A stretch of DNA of 64,000 bases from Squalus acanthias (lineage: Eukaryota), in assembly GCA_030390025.1 (NCBI GenBank), contig CM059432.1:25484001-25548000 (forward strand), in the 5' to 3' direction. Each line of letters starts with the position of its first letter. The stretch's first letter is position 1. This document shows positions 1,329-32,028 of the stretch, one piece after another. The notes under the pieces are model-generated. The model worked only from the letters and a program-made list of their open reading frames with translations, ran no database searches and was not told the origin of the DNA. Both the position numbers and the translations under genes were made by a program.

Positions 1329-3262
1329 GAGTGGTTCTATCTGCCTCCGTCTAATGTCTGTGCTAGCTGTGTAAATACAGCAGTCTAATGGTTGCTGTCC
1401 TTTTGAACTCTGACAGTAACAATTGGTATCGTTACAGTGGGTTGGGCTGGCCAAGATAGAGCTGGTCACTCCAGGGACCAGGAAGCAAAATCTAACAATT
1501 CGGCACAGAACCAAAGCTCAAGTCCTTTAACCGAGCTGTGAAAAGTTCCCAATTGTCTTCTCTAGCTGTGAAACATTGCAGTGGTGAGAAACAACACGAG
1601 CCTGTAGATGCCCAGCATCCTTGAACGTGTGGGATTGTAAAATGTTATAAATTCCTAAACAGGCCACAATGCAATCACCGTAAATATGAGACAGGGTAAA
1701 TTTTACACGCCCTCAAAAAAATTTAATTGGAAAATCCTGCTCCTCAAAAACTCCATGGTCATGGTTTCAAATTTCTCAGAGAATGAGACACTCTGGATGG
1801 CAAACGTGATCAAACAACAAGATTGATCCGTCAGTGATGGGAATGTCAAGATAACAACCGACCTTTCATAAAAATCATGATTTTACTGGAAGCCTTGTGA
1901 AAAAAAAAATCTTTTATTTTCAATGCCACTGGGTTGAAGGTTTAAAGTATTCATTTAAACCTGGATTAGGCAGTCTGTAGCTTGTGTTTTATAGGAAACT
2001 AATAAAAAAAAACCTCAAGAAAACCATTAGTGTTTTTTTTCCCCAAGTCCACTGTTCATTTCAGATCCTAAAATGAATTCTCTTCATAAAAAGCATGCTT
2101 GTGCACCTGGTGCTCTGGTGTATTTCAACAAGGGTTAGTTATTGCTTTGAGAGAGATATGCGCAGTCAAGTGTTGAAAAGACTTTCTGGTCTGTGTTAGA
2201 TGGGAATTGAAAAATCTACTTGGACTGGATGGAATGAATTAACAATCGAACCTGTGTCATCCATTTCAAAAGGATTTCGAAAGTTTTTTTAAATTTATTA
2301 CAATTATTTTCTTCTTTTTCCTCCTCCATCGGATTTAGCCTCACCCTGTTGCCTTTTACTACTTTTCCTCATTCTTCTACTGAGAGAGTGAGTTGTCCAG
2401 AACCACAGTGCATCAGCGTTGATGCACAATCAGCTGACAGGAAGTGCGCATCTGTGGAGCAGGGCACGTTTTTGAGGGTCTTTTCCAGTACCCCATCTCT
2501 CCCTTTCCTGATACAGAACGTACCACTGCTACGTATTGCTCTCTTTAGCTAGCGAGACTCCACCATAGAGACTAAACTATCAAAGACAGAATACAAACTG
2601 TTGCAAATATCCAGTATGAACTTCCCTAAAGGCTCAGTTGGTAACTGCACTTCCCACTGTAGGCCTGAGCCATAGAAGGAAGGTGGCAAGTTCCATTCTG
2701 CTCTGTGTTAATTTATCTGATCTCAGCTAGGGCAGTAATAAGTGCATTTCAATTGTCCTTCACACCCATGGACTATGGAAGGAAATGGAATTATTTGGGT
2801 TGCTGCTGCTGACTCCTACTAGAAAATGTCTGTGCCTGGTGGTGTGAGGACAAGGTTTTGGCTTAGTTATGATACACCTGCAATTGAATAATCTGCCAAT
2901 ACTCAAAAATAGAATATTAAGAACTGCAGAACAAGTATTGGGCCTTATAAACAACACTAAGAAACAAAAATGGATAATGGAAAAAGTCCTAAAGTTGAGT
3001 GAAAAATGAAGAAAACTTAAGCCAAGCATAAAAGCAGATCCTAATATGAGGACTAAATACAACTGGTTAACCAGATTTGAAGGTAAAAGTTTATGAAGTG
3101 ATGGTAATCCCCATATTATTATATGGATCTGAATTTTGGAACATGAGAAAAGTTGACGAGCAAAAGATACTAATAGCAGAGATGAGTTGGTTGCGAGGAA
3201 TACTAGGACTATCCAGGATGTCAAGAATCAAGAGTAATTCTTTAACCAGAGAGTGATTTAAT

Positions 3263-10047: not shown

Positions 10048-10485
10048 GTGGGTTCAAGTTCCCACTCTGGAGACTTGAGCACAAAAATCTAGGCTGATAC
10101 TCCAGTGCAGCACTGAGGGAGTGTTGCACTGTTGGATGTTGCCATCTTTCAGATGAGATGTTAAACTGAGGCCCTCTCTCAGGTGGATGTAAAAAAAACC
10201 ATAGCACTATTTCGAAGAAGAGCAGGGGAGTTATCCCTGGTGTTCTGGCCAATATTTATCCTTCAATCAACATAACAAAAACAGATTATCTGGTCATTAT
10301 CACATTGCTGTTTGTGGGACCCTTGCTGTGTGGTAAATTAGCTGCCGTGTTTCCTACATTACAACAGTGACTGTACTTCAAAAAAGTACTTCATTGGCTA
10401 TAAAGTGCTTTGGGACGTCCGGTGGTCATGAAAGACACTATATAAATGCAAGACTTTCTTTTATATCTGCCATGTTCTTTCCACA
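9397..10485 (-). mobile_element. CR1 fragment interrupted by a SINE
   Basis: QRDLGVLVYESLKVNMQVQQAIRKA...LEYCVQFWSPYLRK; AAGAACATAAGAAATA tail at the left end. Confidence 0.88.
9997..10460 (+). mobile_element. SacSINE1/DeuSINE-like tRNA-derived SINE
   Basis: TGGCTCAGTTGG A box, GGTTCAAG B box, conserved central domain, L2-like tail; TSD TTATAT (9991-9996, 10461-10466). Confidence 0.85.
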
Positions 10486-17399: not shown

Positions 17400-18294
17400 T
17401 TCCGGCAATTCCACTTTGGTCGGAGGGGGAGGAGGAGCCGGAGGAAGGAGCAAACAGCTGCCGCTGGAGGGAGAGCAAATAGAAGGAGGTGTGCTCACAG
17501 GAATCCTGTCCCTTCCAACAGAGGACAACATGCCTTCACTTCATTGTGGAGCAGTGTTTAAAGGGACTGCACTTCTCTAGAAGTTGTCATAGAGTGGTGT
17601 CACCTCCTGCAACAAGAACTGCAACCAACTGCCACAGCTAGCTCAGGATTGCATGTTATAGTCACGATCACTTCAGTCCTTGGCTTTTTTGCCTCTGGCT
17701 CCTTCCAGGCTGCCACAGGGGATATTAGTAACATCAATCAGTCTGCAGTCCACGCCTGCATTAAGCAAGTGACTGATGCCACGATTGCTAAAACAATTTC
17801 CATCATCTTTCCCATGGACATCCAGAGCAGCAGGATAGGGCTCTGGGGTTTGCGCAGATTGCAGGATTTCCCAAAGTCCAGGGCCTCATTGACTGCATCC
17901 TCATCACCCTACGTGCTCCTTCAGATGACCCCACGACCTTCATGTTTCGCAAGGGCTTCCACTCCATTAATGTGCAACTGGTGTGCGATCACCAGCAGCA
18001 TTTCATGCAGGTCTGTGTCTGCTTTCCTGGCAGCTACCATGATGCTTTTATATTGCACCAAACCTTCATTTCCCCTCCCTCCCCACTCTTTGCCCCTGTG
18101 CAGCAACTGGCTGCTTGGGGATAAAGGGTACCACCTGCCTCTTATCAGGAAAACACGGTCGGTGGCCGAACTACGCTACAATCGGACCCATGGCTCAACT
18201 GAAGCCCTTATCGAGTAGATCCCTGCACTTCTCAAACAATAATTCTGCTGCCTGGACAGGTTTGATGGTTTCCTGCACTACAGCCCATGATAGT
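17400..18294 (+). pseudogene. Decayed PIF/Harbinger DDE transposase, interrupted by the Gypsy insertion; element probably spans about 17080-23990
   Basis: Frameshifted motifs FFASGSFQAATGDISNINQSAVHACIKQVTDA, IAGFPKVQGLIDC, FRKGFHSINVQLVCD, FPGSYHDAFIL, WLLGDKGY, YNRTHGSTEALIE. Confidence 0.88.
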
Positions 18295-18509
18295 TGTCAT
18301 AAATCGCAAGTAACAACTCAGGAAGTACTACTGGGCGGCCAGCTGGGGCGCCGTCCAGGGAGTATAAATACTCAGGCATGGGCCCACCTTGGGCAGAGAC
18401 AATCTGGAAACAGGAAGCTAGTGACTGCTAACTAGACCTCCATGTTTTGTTACAAGTTGATTAAAGCCTTGCTTTATGTTCAAGTGCGTAGTGAGTCTTT
18501 ATTACGTCA
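18295..18509 (+). repeat. 5' LTR of the Gypsy element
   Basis: TG...CA termini; TATAAA near 18364; ATTAAA polyA-like signal at 18460-18465; identical to 22590-22804. Confidence 0.96.
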
Positions 18510-18510
18510 A

Positions 18511-18523
18511 TTTAATCAACTTG
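18511..18523 (+). promoter_or_regulatory. Non-tRNA primer-binding site, complementary to the element's own LTR
   Basis: TTTAATCAACTTG, 1 nt after the 5' LTR, is the exact reverse complement of CAAGTTGATTAAA (18453-18465 and 22748-22760); no TGG-starting tRNA PBS. Confidence 0.75.
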
Positions 18524-18609
18524 ATATCGTCTCCACGCTTTGGGTGATTCGGAACAACCAGCTGCAACTCGAACCACAGAAGGGAACTAGGGCAAGAAAC
18601 TGATCCATC

Positions 18610-21600
18610 ATGGAGAAACTCCTTAGACCCGCTCGTCTCGACCTGGACCCGAATGCACCTGCGGCAGCGAAGGTATGGAAGCATTGGTTTCGTACCTTTA
18701 GCAACTTTCTTGAAGAATGTGGGGCGGATGTCCCTAATAAGTTACGAATGCTTATCAACTACGTGTCTCCTCATGTGTATGATTATATTGAGGACTGTAT
18801 AGTCTATGACACGGCTATCGAAATCTTACAGCAGCTATATGTCAAGTCCCCAAATGAAATATTTGCTCGACACCTACTGGCCACAACTCGGCAGCAGCCT
18901 GGGGAATCACTCGATGAATTTCTCCAGAAACTTCGCAGGCTCAGCAAGGATTGTAACCTTAAAGCAGTTACAGCTGAACAGTATCAAGAGGAACTAATCC
19001 GCGATTCCTTTATCAATGGAATCGCGTCCCCTTTTATACGTCAGCGCCTGCTGGAAAATAAAACCCTCAATTTACGAGCTGCTTATGACCAGGCGTGTTC
19101 CTTGGACTTGGCCAAGAAAAATGCAGACACTTATCTCCCACCACGTGCACGGGCAGCGGCTATCTCCTTTAATGAGTCTTTCGGTAGGTCTCGGGCGGAT
19201 GCCCCCACTGATGTTGACTCTACTCTAACGGACGACGACCCTACCCTAGAGGCCTTCGCTGATGACGACCCCGCCCTAGCAGCATCCTGGCAATCAGGAA
19301 GAAAGTGTTTCTTTTGTGGAGGGGCATGCCATCACAGAAAATTTTGCCCGGCTCGTAATGTGACCTGCAATCATTGCAGCAAGAAAGGACACTTTTCCAA
19401 GGTATGCCAGTCACGGGCCTTTGCTAACAAGAAAGGCCGCTCCTCTAAAGTATACCGGTCGAGAGCTCCTGTTAGCTTCACAGCTGCTATCTATGGAGCT
19501 GCTCCTCCCCCAAGAACTACTGTTAAGGCTACAGTTGCCGAAGGGAAAATTGCCCCTCCTCCCATCACGGCTGTTTTTCCCCAAAGTTTGTCCCATGCAG
19601 CCACGAAGGTTTCAGTAAATGGGCACACTCTAAGCGCGCTAATCGACTCCTGCAGCTCTGACAGCTTCATTAGTAAGCGGGCTGTCAACAGGTTAAAACT
19701 ACACATTTATCCCTCGGACAGGGAGATTGCAATGGCTCTGACGACTCTGACCACCAATTCTTCTGGCTTCTGTCTGGTCAACCTCATCCTCAACGGCCGC
19801 ACGTATCTCTCCACCCGGCTCGGAGTACTCGCAAACTTATGCAGCGATGTGCTTCTGGGACAGGACTTCCAGAAGCAGCACAAGAAGATCACTTTTGAGT
19901 TTGGAGGGTCAAGGCCGGAGCTTACCATTTCTAAGGTGCCGTTTTGTGCACTCTCGGCGGCCTTACTCGGTGAACCCTCCCTGTTTGCCAATCTTCCCCC
20001 CCGCTGTAAACCCATAGCCACCAAATCGCGGCGCTTTAGCCAAGATGATCGAGCGTTTATTGAGGCGGAAATCTCTTGCCTTTTAGTCGACGGTATTATC
20101 GAGCCATGTTCCTCTCCCTGGCGGGCTCAGGTCGTCATCGTGAGGAATCCCTTAAAACAACATAAAAAACGTCTGTGTATCGATTATTCGCAGACTATTA
20201 ATCTATATACCGATCTGGATGCCTACCCGCTGCCACGCATAGATGACATGGTCAACAACCTTGCCAAATACAAGGTATTCTCGACCTTCGATTTAAAAAG
20301 CGCGTACCATCAGGTGCCACTGCAAGACTCCGACAAGAAGTATACGGCCTTTGAGGCCAATGGTCGGCTTTTCCAGTTTCGCCGCCTTCCATTCGGGGTC
20401 ACCAATGGGGTGGCCGTCTTCCAACGGGCCATGGATGGCCTAGTCCGGCAAGAGAACTTGGCGGATACCTTTCCGTATTTAGACAATATCACTATTGCCG
20501 GCCATGATCAAAAGGAGCATGACGCCAATCTTCAGAGATTTTTTGACGTACTCCGCCGTCGCCACTTAACGTTAAACGAATCCAAATCGGTGAAGTCGGT
20601 GCCATCGGTGAACATTCTTGGCTACTGGGTGGGCAACGGTGTTATTAAACCGGACCCAGAGCGACTTCGTCCACTTCAGGAGCTCCCTCCCCCGACGAAC
20701 CTCGGCTCTCTTCGTCGGGCACTTGGCATGTTTGCTTATTACGCAAAATGGATACCACACTTCTCCGATAAAATACAGCCCCTGCTCCATGCGAAGTCTT
20801 TTCCATTGGAAGCTACGGCTATTTCTGCCTTCAACCTCCTCAAACGACAGCTGGAGAAAGCCACGCTTCGCTCCATTGACGAAAATCTTCCTTTTGTGGT
20901 CGAATGCGATGCATCGGAGGTGGCGATCTCCGCTACCTTGAATCAAGGTGGCCGACCCGTGGCATTCCTATCCAGAACCTTGCAGGGTAGCGAGCTCCAT
21001 TACCCCCCCGTCGAGAAGGAGGCTACGGCCATCATCGAGGCTGTACGCCAATGGGGTCATTTTCTTGCTCGGCGTCATTTTACGCTTATAACTGACCAGC
21101 GCTCTGTGGCCTTCATGTTGGATAACCGGAGGCGCACGAAAATCAAAAATAATAAAATTCAACTCTGGAGGATGGAGCTGGCTGCCTTTGGATACACTAT
21201 CTGTTACCGACCCGGCAAACAGAACGTGGCCCCAGATACCTTCACACGGGCATTTTGCTCCTCAATGTCAACGTCGACTCTGGCGGATTTGCATATGGAC
21301 TTATGCCATCCTGGTGTGACCCGCATGTTGCACTTTGTGCGCTCCAAAAATCTACCATTTTCAACCGAGGACGTAAAGAAAACATGCTCCTCCTGTAGGA
21401 TTTGTGCAGAATTGAAACCACAATTCTTTCGCCCATCAGATGGCTTACTCATACATGCAATGCAGCCTATGCAGAGGCTCAGCATAGACTTTAAAGGGCC
21501 ATTGCCTTCGTCGACAAGGAACACCTACCTACTTACGATGGTGGACGAGTATTCACGCTTTCCCTTCGCCTTCCCCTGCCCTAATATGCTTACCTCTACG

Positions 21601-22551
21601 GTAATTAAATGCCTCGATCAGGTCTTTTCCCTTTGCGGGACGGCCAATTTTATCCACACTGATCGGGGTCCCTCCTTTATGTCGAGTGAACTTAAAAGTT
21701 ATCTCTCCCAACGGGGAATCGCCTCAAGTAGAACGACACCATATCACCCAATCGGTAACGGACAGGTTGAACGATACAATGCCATCATCTGGAACGCTGT
21801 CCGTCTGGCACTAAGGTCACACAACCTACCGGACCAGCAGTGGGAAACGGTGCTCCCCGACGCGTTACACTCTATCAGGTCTCTTCTCTCCACGTCTACT
21901 AATGTCACGCCTCATGAGCGATTCTTCAAATTCCGGCGTCGCTCTACACATGGGACGTCTCTACCGTCATGGTTGGTGGCTCCAGGCCCGGTGCTACTCC
22001 GGAGGTTCGTCCGGTCTGCCAAAAACGACCCTCTCGTTGACGAGGTGGAGTTAACGGAGGTAAACCCCACGTATGCGCACGTACGGTACCCTGATGGCCG
22101 GGAGACCACCGTCTCGCTCCGAGATCTGGCTCCCTGCCCAACCGGTCATACGGGCCCGAATGATGAAGGATCCCCCGACAATGATATCAACACTCCGCAC
22201 CCCTATGAAAATGATGCCCCGCTTGGGACATCGGGGGATCTGCCGGCAACGCTACCGGATCAACTCAGGGAGCTGGACGCTCCCCGTAGGATGGCCACCC
22301 GAAACCAGGACGCCAGACAATCTCCAGCCACGACCCGGGATGAGGCCAGCTCAGCACCTGTGGGGACCCGCACCCGGAGTCATGATATTCCCAGTCCTCC
22401 ACAGGATGATCAAGATGACGCGGACTCTACTGACTTACCGGTACGGGCCAAGCGACCCAGGGACCAGGACAGTGTCCGGGGAGACGTGCCTTCCGGTCAC
22501 AAGCAGAGAGCTAAACGTCTACGGCTATTTCTGGTCCGCCTAGTCCGTTAA
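18610..22551 (+). CDS. Gag-Pol polyprotein (1313 aa): Gag with zinc knuckles, aspartic protease, RT, RNase H, integrase
   Basis: Zinc knuckles CFFCGGACHHRKFC and CNHCSKKGHFSKVC; protease LIDSCSSDSFI; RT SPWRAQVV, LCIDY, YPLPRID, FDLKSAYHQ, LPFGV, YLDN; RNase H VECDAS...EKEA...TDQRS; integrase H-H-C-C then IDFKGP...HTDRG...QVERYN. The order RT-RH-IN is the Gypsy arrangement. Confidence 0.96.
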   Translation: MEKLLRPARLDLDPNAPAAAKVWKHWFRTFSNFLEECGADVPNKLRMLINYVSPHVYDYIEDCIVYDTAIEILQQLYVKSPNEIFARHLLATTRQQPGESLDEFLQKLRRLSKDCNLKAVTAEQYQEELIRDSFINGIASPFIRQRLLENKTLNLRAAYDQACSLDLAKKNADTYLPPRARAAAISFNESFGRSRADAPTDVDSTLTDDDPTLEAFADDDPALAASWQSGRKCFFCGGACHHRKFCPARNVTCNHCSKKGHFSKVCQSRAFANKKGRSSKVYRSRAPVSFTAAIYGAAPPPRTTVKATVAEGKIAPPPITAVFPQSLSHAATKVSVNGHTLSALIDSCSSDSFISKRAVNRLKLHIYPSDREIAMALTTLTTNSSGFCLVNLILNGRTYLSTRLGVLANLCSDVLLGQDFQKQHKKITFEFGGSRPELTISKVPFCALSAALLGEPSLFANLPPRCKPIATKSRRFSQDDRAFIEAEISCLLVDGIIEPCSSPWRAQVVIVRNPLKQHKKRLCIDYSQTINLYTDLDAYPLPRIDDMVNNLAKYKVFSTFDLKSAYHQVPLQDSDKKYTAFEANGRLFQFRRLPFGVTNGVAVFQRAMDGLVRQENLADTFPYLDNITIAGHDQKEHDANLQRFFDVLRRRHLTLNESKSVKSVPSVNILGYWVGNGVIKPDPERLRPLQELPPPTNLGSLRRALGMFAYYAKWIPHFSDKIQPLLHAKSFPLEATAISAFNLLKRQLEKATLRSIDENLPFVVECDASEVAISATLNQGGRPVAFLSRTLQGSELHYPPVEKEATAIIEAVRQWGHFLARRHFTLITDQRSVAFMLDNRRRTKIKNNKIQLWRMELAAFGYTICYRPGKQNVAPDTFTRAFCSSMSTSTLADLHMDLCHPGVTRMLHFVRSKNLPFSTEDVKKTCSSCRICAELKPQFFRPSDGLLIHAMQPMQRLSIDFKGPLPSSTRNTYLLTMVDEYSRFPFAFPCPNMLTSTVIKCLDQVFSLCGTANFIHTDRGPSFMSSELKSYLSQRGIASSRTTPYHPIGNGQVERYNAIIWNAVRLALRSHNLPDQQWETVLPDALHSIRSLLSTSTNVTPHERFFKFRRRSTHGTSLPSWLVAPGPVLLRRFVRSAKNDPLVDEVELTEVNPTYAHVRYPDGRETTVSLRDLAPCPTGHTGPNDEGSPDNDINTPHPYENDAPLGTSGDLPATLPDQLRELDAPRRMATRNQDARQSPATTRDEASSAPVGTRTRSHDIPSPPQDDQDDADSTDLPVRAKRPRDQDSVRGDVPSGHKQRAKRLRLFLVRLVR

Positions 22552-22577
22552 AGGAAGACTGGACTTCCAAACCTTTT

Positions 22578-22589
22578 AGGGAGGAAGAA
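22578..22589 (+). promoter_or_regulatory. Polypurine tract (plus-strand primer)
   Basis: AGGGAGGAAGAA directly abutting the 3' LTR. Confidence 0.85.
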
Positions 22590-22804
22590 TGTCATAAATC
22601 GCAAGTAACAACTCAGGAAGTACTACTGGGCGGCCAGCTGGGGCGCCGTCCAGGGAGTATAAATACTCAGGCATGGGCCCACCTTGGGCAGAGACAATCT
22701 GGAAACAGGAAGCTAGTGACTGCTAACTAGACCTCCATGTTTTGTTACAAGTTGATTAAAGCCTTGCTTTATGTTCAAGTGCGTAGTGAGTCTTTATTAC
22801 GTCA
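22590..22804 (+). repeat. 3' LTR of the Gypsy element
   Basis: Identical to the 5' LTR by eye; preceded by PPT, followed by TSD ATAGT. Confidence 0.96.
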
Positions 22805-23439
22805 ATAGTGGTTTGCTCTTCAGCAGCAGTTCATTGAAGAGCATTTCAGCTGACCAATCCATCCTCTCTTGTATTAATAAACATGTCCCAAATCACATCT
22901 AGTCCTTCCACCCTCAAATAAACTGCATCCGCTCAAAGATCAGCATTGTTAATTATGTCACCAGTTACTTCAGCAACACAATCTGCATACAAAGATTTCA
23001 AAAATTATTATAATTGTTATGCTTAATAACAATTCCTATTACTAATTATCGCCAAGGTGAGAGCTCCTAGTGCTTGTCTTAAGTGTTCTCTTTCCTATCT
23101 AGTGTTCCGACAAGGTTCTCCCCCTATGGCCACAGCATGGGAGGTGGAAGGCTGCTGTGGCTCGTGGTCAGCGACCTCTAGGAGCTTGGGCCTGAGAGTT
23201 CTCGCTGAGACTGCAGCAACTCAGTGGCTGCTAGAGCATTCTGGCCTAGCCAGCTTTCTGGCACCAGCTTAGGCAGTGGTAGAAGGCTCATCATGGTCCA
23301 GACATGCTGTCCTCCTGAGAAATGGCGGCATGTTCTATTCTCATTGCAGGACTGCCCATGCTATCGGGTTGCTGCTCAGCACTCACATTCATCTGCGGGA
23401 GATCAGACTGTAGGAGTCGCCTTAGCGCGGAGCCCAGGC

Positions 23440-23692
23440 AGTGCAGAGCCGCCTCAGTGTGGAGCCGCCTCAGTGCGGAGCTGCCTCATTGCGGAGCTGC
23501 CTCAGGGTGGAGCCGCTTCAGTGTGGAGCTGCCTCAGTGCGGAGCCGCCTCAGTGTGCGGCTGCTTCAGTGCGGAACTCACTCAGTGTGGAGCCGCCTCA
23601 GTGCGGAGCTGCCTCAGTACAGCACTGCCTCTGTGCGGAGCTGCCTCAGTACAGCACTGCCTCTGTGCGGAGCTGCCTCAGTGCGGAGCTGT
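23440..23692. repeat. Minisatellite of about 16-bp units (consensus GCCTCAGTGCGGAGCT)
   Basis: Roughly 15 tandem imperfect copies with no unique spacers. Confidence 0.9.
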
Positions 23693-24445
23693 CCCAAGTT
23701 CAATTTAGTTTTAAATAACACCTTAATCTATATAATTGACTGCACAGGCTAAGACATCTGCCCACTGCCATAGCAATCTTGAATTGCTAAGAAGGCACAG
23801 GCATTCCTAGCATCCAGATCTGCTCGGGCACACGCGACAGTAAGTATATCGGATGACGTATTTCCATCACTCGAATCTCATTACTACATGTCCACATTTG
23901 AATGGTCGCATTGTGTGTCCTCTGTCGGTTCCAGTGGAAAATTCACAGAATTGGTGGAGGATAATGGGGAGCACGTCCCAGTAATTTCAACCTGCTGAAG
24001 TTATCCTGGGGATTCTACATAAAATGTGTTTGAGCGGAGGTAGACAAGTTGCAAGAGCACTAAAATATTCCTATTTGTCACCAAATTGGCAGTCTCACTC
24101 AAAGAGGCTAGATCTTGACTGGTGTGGGAAACAGACGGTCCAGATAGGTATGTGAATTTGCTGTCCCTGGCGATGTGAAGCAGCAGAGTGTAGCCATGAA
24201 CAGCAATCTTTCAGGTTAGAAAGAGGTTATGTGTTAGACCCTTGCTATTTTTATTATCGACTAATGACTTGGACCGGTGCAACATTGAGGTTGGAGTTGA
24301 GGCCCACTGGTGTGGCAGAGTAAAAGAAATGTTATTCTCCATTGACTTGGACTGCTCGATGCTGACACTTGGATCGTGCAATGGGGTGATTACCCATATC
24401 CTTCACCTTGATCTGCACAAAAAAGCGAATAAAATGATAAATAGT

Positions 24446-31591: not shown

Positions 31592-32028
31592 TGTCAATTG
31601 TGGCTCAGTGGTAGCTCTCTCATCTGAGTCAGAAGGTTGTGGGTTCAAGCCCCGCTCCAGAGACTTGAGCGCATAATCTCGGCTGACACTCCAGTGCAGT
31701 ACTGAGAGAGTGCTGCACTGTTGAAGGTGCCGTCTTTCGAATGAGACATATAACTGAGGCACCGTCTACCTTCTCAGGTGGACGTAAAAGATCTCAAGGC
31801 ACTATCCGAAGAAGAGCAGGGGAGTTATCCCCGGTGTCCTGGCCAATATTTATCATTCAACCAATAACACTAAAACAGATTATCTGGTCATTATCACATT
31901 GCTGTTTGTGGGAGCTTGCTGTGTGTAATTTAGCTGCCATGTTTCCTACATTACAACAGTGGCTACACTTCAAAAGTACTGCATTGGCTGTCAAGCGCTT
32001 TGAGACGTGCTGAGATCTTAAAAGGCGC
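31592..32028 (+). mobile_element. SacSINE1/DeuSINE-like SINE
   Basis: Collinear with 9997-10460. Confidence 0.85.

Follow-up and report, generated by a model that had tools for sequence, protein, structure and literature searches.

The retrotransposons Tf1 and Tf2 of Schizosaccharomyces pombe and Tj1 of S. japonicus are presented as self-primed Ty3/Gypsy elements of the Tf1/sushi group in PMC10085805, PMC4600332 and PMC5341516. The first of these papers calls self-priming a hallmark of Tf1/sushi chromoviruses and also describes a three-duplex 'pretzel' RNA structure for Tf1. Self-priming has furthermore been predicted for the plant lineages Tcn1 (a Gypsy chromovirus) and TAR (Copia), according to an excerpt of PMC6317226. 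For Mag elements, tRNA primers are on record: Steamer and its sister branches C9 and C10 carry 12 nt complementary to the 3' end of tRNA-Leu (PMC8905726), and mosquito Mag elements use tRNA-Leu or tRNA-Ser as primer (excerpt of PMC3286476). In the full-text literature that we searched, which does not extend to the first descriptions of SURL and Jule or to Butler et al. (2001), we found no report of self-priming for Gypsy elements of animals that are devoid of a chromodomain, be they of the SURL, Steamer, Jule, K02A2.6-like or another type; earlier mention in print is therefore conceivable.

Here, we study a 4.5-kb element in a stretch of 64,000 nucleotides from Squalus acanthias. This whole 64-kb stretch is referred to as the window, and all positions without a locus name are positions within it. 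A sequence-only reading of the window had described an intact Gypsy element with a self-complementary primer-binding site, i.e., a candidate for tRNA-independent self-priming.

Element structure and family age

The element spans positions 18295-22804 and is indeed intact. Its LTRs form a direct repeat of 100% identity (215 bp each, TG..CA ends), a 5-bp target-site duplication flanks it, and a single gag-pol frame lies in between (Table 1). The LTR limits are matched in public runs, where one Logan contig corresponds exactly to 18295-18509 and, in three runs, contig ends coincide with 18295 and with 18509. TG..CA LTRs, target-site duplication and a polypurine tract in front of the 3' LTR are features of Ty3/Gypsy elements (Metaviridae), and so is the domain order protease, RT, RNase H and integrase found with Pfam. 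By sequence, the closest solved structures are those of Ty3 Gag-Pol (7q5b, E 2.8e-54) and Ty3 RT (4ol8, E 1.9e-48). The chromodomain of the Tf1/sushi group was not found, in line with what had been stated from the sequence: Pfam reports none for the window protein and none for 27/27 aligned relatives, i.e., there is no Chromo match at E <=0.01 in any of these 28 aligned proteins.

Table 1. Coordinates of the element's features within the window.
Feature	Position	Strand	Basis
Target-site duplication, left copy, 5 bp	18290..18294		identical to 22805-22809, by reading
5' LTR, 215 bp, TG..CA	18295..18509	+	repeat identity and Logan contig limits
GC-box-like motif, putative promoter part	18333..18338	+	by eye
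TATAAA, putative TATA box	18363..18368	+	by reading
Initiator-like motif, A at 18395; predicted transcript start near 18395	18392..18397	+	by eye
Proposed self-primer segment (arm 1) in the LTR; 18460-18465 is ATTAAA	18453..18465	+	repeat search, scan, covariation, fold, model
Loop joining the two arms (remainder of R, then U5); local hairpins	18466..18509	+	fold
One-base spacer between LTR end and primer-binding site	18510	+	equal spacing in relatives
Candidate primer-binding site (arm 2), perfect complement of 18453-18465	18511..18523	+	repeat search and covariation
Single gag-pol frame, 1313 aa	18610..22551	+	ORF and Pfam
Two zinc knuckles	about 19306-19407	+	Cys/His invariant in alignment of relatives
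Protease	19606-19869	+	Pfam
RT	20191-20628	+	Pfam
RNase H	20818-21189	+	Pfam
Integrase zinc domain	21271-21420	+	Pfam
Integrase core	21463-21750	+	Pfam
Polypurine tract, 12 nt, adjoins 3' LTR	22578..22589	+	by reading
3' LTR, with second copy of the segment at 22748-22760, no complement after it	22590..22804	+	repeat search, model search
Target-site duplication, right copy	22805..22809		by reading

With regard to its surroundings, the element sits within the decayed remnant of a Harbinger/PIF-type transposase (17900-18085 on the plus strand, continuing to about 18289), which matches Pfam DDE_Tnp_4 with E 3.8e-09 and shows stop codons in its longer translation. About 560 nt downstream of the element, positions 23371-23728 form a tandem array with a period of 16 nt and at least 15 overlapping register copies. 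Furthermore, a direct repeat of 107 nt with 93% identity connects 10213-10319 with 31807-31913, which are 21.6 kb apart.

Within the 3.7-Gb host genome, 1288 candidate matches to the LTR plus leader were obtained. We scored 40 of these candidates; each of the 40 shows 100% identity across 326 nt, and the family is therefore very young. On the protein level, 1314 homologues of the polyprotein were found at E <=0.001 among 8000 scored candidates, the best being 69% identical. Most of them are about 1200 aa long and stem from environmental or Logan contigs; named sources are shrimp, copepod, isopod, tunicate, soft coral, sea anemone and whipworm. In addition, 14 public runs (X1-X14; six studies, five organism codes) contain 62-83% of the element's sampled 31-mers, which suggests that the sources are closely related to the host or that the element has recently passed from species to species. 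The Logan contigs from X1, X5 and X9 have the appearance of DNA, with roughly sixfold greater depth in the LTR than in the interior and with breaks at the LTR ends.

Complementary arms in the window

The central claim of the sequence-only reading was a perfect 13-nt reverse complement between the primer-binding position and a segment found in both LTRs. We recover exactly this arrangement: the 13-mer occurs three times in the 64-kb window (0.11 expected by chance), namely on the plus strand in both LTRs (18453-18465 and 22748-22760) and on the minus strand at 18511-18523. The polarity is that of priming, as had been noted, with arm 2 starting 1 nt past the terminal CA of the LTR, i.e., next to the U5 end. 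The remaining local details also agree with the earlier description. That is, no TGG-type tRNA site is seen by reading after the 5' LTR, TATAAA lies 90 nt before the segment, and the ATTAAA hexamer makes up the last six bases of the segment.

Could the complementarity be a chance match or an assembly artefact? Its short length of 13 nt is the sole point in favour of such an origin, to which we assign next to no probability. Three 13-mer matches were reached in 0/100 shuffles, which excludes a chance match. As for an artefact, the 40 scored genomic copies do not differ at a single position of LTR and leader, the same sequence is present in contigs from independent runs, and the helix is found again in relatives, as detailed below.

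Helix conservation and covariation in relatives

Relatives were collected from metagenome contigs that were scanned with protein alignment. This yielded 599 stretches, 333 of which encode a relative, and we used the best 80 of these 333 (loci L009-L088; 40-77% protein identity). Over all 81 sources (the window plus the 80 loci), 24 show perfect arms of 11-18 nt in equivalent geometry, and these arms comprise no fewer than 16 distinct sequences. Among the other loci, many are without any 5' LTR junction.

From the 300 nt before gag, the scan took the longest inverted repeat that pairs perfectly and encloses a loop of 20-90 nt. It was applied to 27 sources including the window, that is, to the 32 that reach the gag start minus 5 that are too short upstream. 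Arms of at least 11 nt are present in 18/27 scanned sources, compared with 4/540 shuffled controls. For 17 of these 18 the geometry is the same: arm 1 is located in the LTR and ends in an A run, the loop has 36-66 nt, and arm 2 follows one base after the CA. The 18th source (L065) represents a different repeat away from any LTR end. By inspection, the layout is also present in six further loci (L050, L052, L062, L063, L071, L081), where it contains one mismatch or is decayed, and in L023 and L059 the LTR is not recognisable upstream of gag.

We then built a covariance model of the helix and ran it against the window and the 80 loci. Outside its building set, it matches L012, L013, L016, L024, L042, L045 and L087 with arms of 11-18 nt as well as L064 with arms of 9 nt. 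For L012, the scan had found none upstream, and the helix is located downstream in the locus. Weak matches in L048, L055, L065 and L070 are without a helix. The model also reports sites at the 3' LTRs of L014, L015 and L034, the arms of which measure only 5-7 nt; this would be expected of a complement that follows the 5' LTR alone. Within the window, the model matches 18450-18526 and the reverse-strand echo of this region only, with none at the 3' LTR. Pairing is also present in L021 and L033, by reading. As a control, a pattern search in the same genome that excluded the window's own family returned 10 places with arms of only 5-7 nt, none of which is real.

The arms covary. In alignment A2, which holds 21 sequences cut around arms already found by the scan and in which related loci are non-independent samples, 14/16 helix pairs show changes on both sides. 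Among the cells of A2, 91.5% are paired, versus 28-46% after the 3' partner has been shifted by 1-3 columns, and the A2 covariation measures were reached in 0/500 shuffles. RNAalifold independently predicts the same 13 pairs with compensatory changes in 11 of them. Matched changes in the arms are visible even between close copies (L026 vs. L028 and L034) and between the window and L013, the nearest relative with an LTR (70% identity). Covariation between primer-binding site and LTR had been suggested as a check in the sequence-only reading; scan, A2, RNAalifold and covariance model all give a positive answer, and it is this result that lends support to a self-complementary primer-binding site and to tRNA-independent self-priming as its candidate function.

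Where the two LTRs of a copy are 96-100% alike, the arms are perfect in most cases, and mismatched arms are found in decayed copies (L062/L063, LTRs 84% alike; L052, 93%; L015, 93%). Exceptions are L044 (90%) and L049 (92%), both with perfect arms, and L027 (99%) with one mismatch.

Minimum-free-energy folds contain the helix in 9/9 sequences. They show one long-range helix, the loop of which carries a small local hairpin directly after arm 1. A small hairpin at this place recurs with different sequences in L014 (1436-1452), L011 (1413-1426), L010, L020, L009 and L016, with 54% of its cells paired on an automatic alignment; this recurrence is suggestive only. Lin and Levin (1998) reportedly name a U5-IR-like stem-loop for Tf1 in their title, and the small hairpin could correspond to it.

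Some observations concern the primer segment itself and individual loci. The segment and its next three bases (18453-18468) are identical in L028 and L034 (1426-1441), despite proteins that are only 49-53% identical to that of the window, and the core of the motif is common to several other lineages. The conservation of the segment is higher than what pairing alone needs. In L013, the polypurine tract and the first LTR bases are duplicated in tandem before the LTR (2985-3060). The 4046-nt contig of L021 begins 42 nt before the primer-binding site and stops in the final bases of the primer segment; its two ends do not overlap, and they probably reflect an assembly break.

Covariation shows that the helix matters, but a purely structural helix would covary alike, such that this evidence cannot separate priming from a structural role. 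The helix may serve structure or regulation only, e.g., by hiding the poly(A)-signal-like hexamer in the 5' copy of R or in packaging or dimerisation, with priming done by something else. This would fit the segment's terminal hexamer, which resembles a poly(A) signal in most relatives, and the presence of the complement only after the 5' LTR, as an occlusion switch needs. What speaks against it is the placement of arm 2, which is always 1 nt past the CA of the LTR and thus has the exact place and polarity of a primer-binding site. In addition, another primer place is missing: neither the window LTR nor those of the relatives are followed by a TGG-type site, and in relatives gag starts at most 53 nt after arm 2 (at most 5 nt in 10/16), which leaves no room for a further site. 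Given this, we consider an exclusively structural helix improbable. Priming and structural functions could also coexist.

Host RNAs as a possible primer

The primer could also be a small RNA of the host, such as a tRNA or a piece of one, that happens to contain the same 13 nt, with the copy in the LTR being incidental. The core of the primer motif, common to several distant relatives, would be compatible with such a host RNA. The host tRNAs that we compared with the element comprise 52 genes with 26 distinct sequences, all of them Lys-UUU or Cys-GCA, the top-scoring kinds of an Rfam tRNA search; for this one element, a match among other tRNA kinds is conceivable. Among these 26 distinct sequences, the longest complement to 18505-18540 has 6 nt. 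No tRNA gene is present in the 64-kb window, and no tRNA was found at any of the 12 fetched genomic places of the 13-mer followed by A or C. In the genome, the 13-mer followed by A or C has 134 occurrences compared to 117 for the reversed control, i.e., it is at background level.

The stronger argument comes from the relatives and not from this thin host tRNA check. There are 16 or more distinct site sequences, every one of them matching the LTR of its own element, and no single host RNA explains many such sites. Hence, we regard a host RNA primer as highly improbable. Half-tRNA priming as known from copia was considered as well and rejected, since it would leave the covariation unexplained.

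Transcript start, poly(A) signal and primer geometry

Where the primer segment lies within the transcript depends on the transcript start. The GC box, TATA box and initiator-like motif of the window LTR, all identified by eye, suggest a primer inside R; the usual motif definitions were applied. Transcription would accordingly start near 18395, i.e., 32 nt after the TATA box and about 58 nt before the segment. In the 12 relatives inspected by eye, TATAAA was not seen. Furthermore, only 92-94 nt of LTR precede the segment in some relatives, which would favour a start close to the segment. Taken for the window element, an internal primer is about an even bet.

Poly(A) cleavage normally takes place 10-30 nt after the signal and not directly at the end of the segment; for the window element, a poly(A) site near 18484 is predicted. 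Thus, it is unlikely that the 3' end of the polyadenylated RNA provides the primer, since its A tail would remain unpaired next to the site. Since the last six bases of the segment resemble a poly(A) signal, masking of this hexamer in the 5' copy of R may be a further role of the helix.

Combining these points, one can envisage an internal R primer (at about +59 to +71) that carries the poly(A) signal, where the helix would hide the signal and, after the RNase H cut, provide a capped primer of about 70 nt. Such an arrangement would be distinct from that of Tf1 and ancestral to a large chromodomain-less lineage of animal Gypsy elements. We offer this combined scenario tentatively and rate it as somewhat doubtful.

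Proposed priming mechanism

In our view, this recently active element quite likely uses its own RNA to prime the synthesis of minus-strand DNA, in the manner of Tf1. Self-priming is the best reading of the sequence data because of the complement itself, its place and polarity as a primer, its covariation in relatives, its absence at the 3' LTRs and the lack of any other site.

The individual steps are modelled on Tf1, Tf2 and Tj1. In the genomic RNA, the LTR segment 18453-18465 would fold back onto 18511-18523, which starts one base beyond U5. The element's own RNase H would presumably cut the RNA after 18465, such that the new 3' end can be extended over 18510 to 18466. This would produce a minus-strand strong-stop DNA of about 45 nt, whose last approximately 20 nt match the part of R after the segment and may thus enable transfer to the 3' end of the RNA. 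After this transfer, synthesis would proceed as in other LTR elements. If the plus-strand copy of the site is made from the primer, as we suppose, the arms would be kept complementary in each cycle. The loop of L013 has only 24 nt, which implies that U5 and the part of R beyond the primer can together be very short.

What we describe is a self-priming signature with strong covariation, at the level of sequence, in a chromodomain-less and animal-wide Gypsy lineage that includes a very young vertebrate family. If the self-priming reading is true, tRNA independence arose more than once or is older than thought. Annotation pipelines that seek only tRNA sites would then miss such elements or assign wrong boundaries to them. 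Likewise, host defences that act on tRNA primer sites, e.g., via the 3' tRNA fragments that a preprint mentions, would not see these elements.

Comparison with known systems

Ty3 of Saccharomyces cerevisiae has the same domain order as the window element. It is primed by initiator tRNA-Met, and its two frames and its LTRs differ from what is found here.

Judged by published descriptions, kinship with the Mag C-clade (SURL, Steamer and Jule-like elements) is likely but only a lead. Shared features are the single gag-pol frame, a length of 4.5-5 kb, LTRs of about 130-220 bp and, by eye, roughly similar ends, as far as the excerpts report them. The full LTR pairs of our relatives measure 159-223 bp, shorter repeats being cut by contig ends or divergence. 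Excerpts of the literature give a mean of 174 bp for Mag C LTRs (PMC3601003) and 177-187 bp for those of Steamer (PMC8905726), and further Mag C-clade descriptions that fit in frame, size and LTR length are found in excerpts of PMC6238403 and PMC8220671. Both the clade and the window's lineage occur in a wide range of marine animals and vertebrates. The tRNA-Leu 12-mer given for Steamer in the excerpt of PMC8905726 is present in 0/160 loci, and the window LTR is without a following TGG.

The predictions for Tcn1 and TAR resemble ours in that they derive from complementarity between LTR and site in whole lineages without a tRNA site (PMC6317226, excerpt). They differ in superfamily or clade and in hosts, and there, according to the same excerpt, the 5' end of the RNA is assumed to be the primer.

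The closest parallel in priming is provided by Tf1, Tf2 and Tj1. As in the Tf1/sushi group, the sequence adjoining the 5' LTR is the complement of RNA derived from the element's LTR and not of a tRNA, and the proposed RNase H cut and strong-stop transfer are alike (PMC10085805, PMC4600332 and PMC5341516). Compared to the Tf1 'pretzel' (PMC10085805), our nine thermodynamic folds, which by themselves could miss such duplexes, show the central duplex and local hairpins without two extra duplexes beside the site. In contrast to the Tf1 group, the window element is without a chromodomain, its lineage has animal hosts, and the primer ends in a poly(A)-signal-like hexamer. Finally, the Tf1 primer consists of the first bases of the mRNA, whereas that of the window element may lie about 58 nt inside the RNA.
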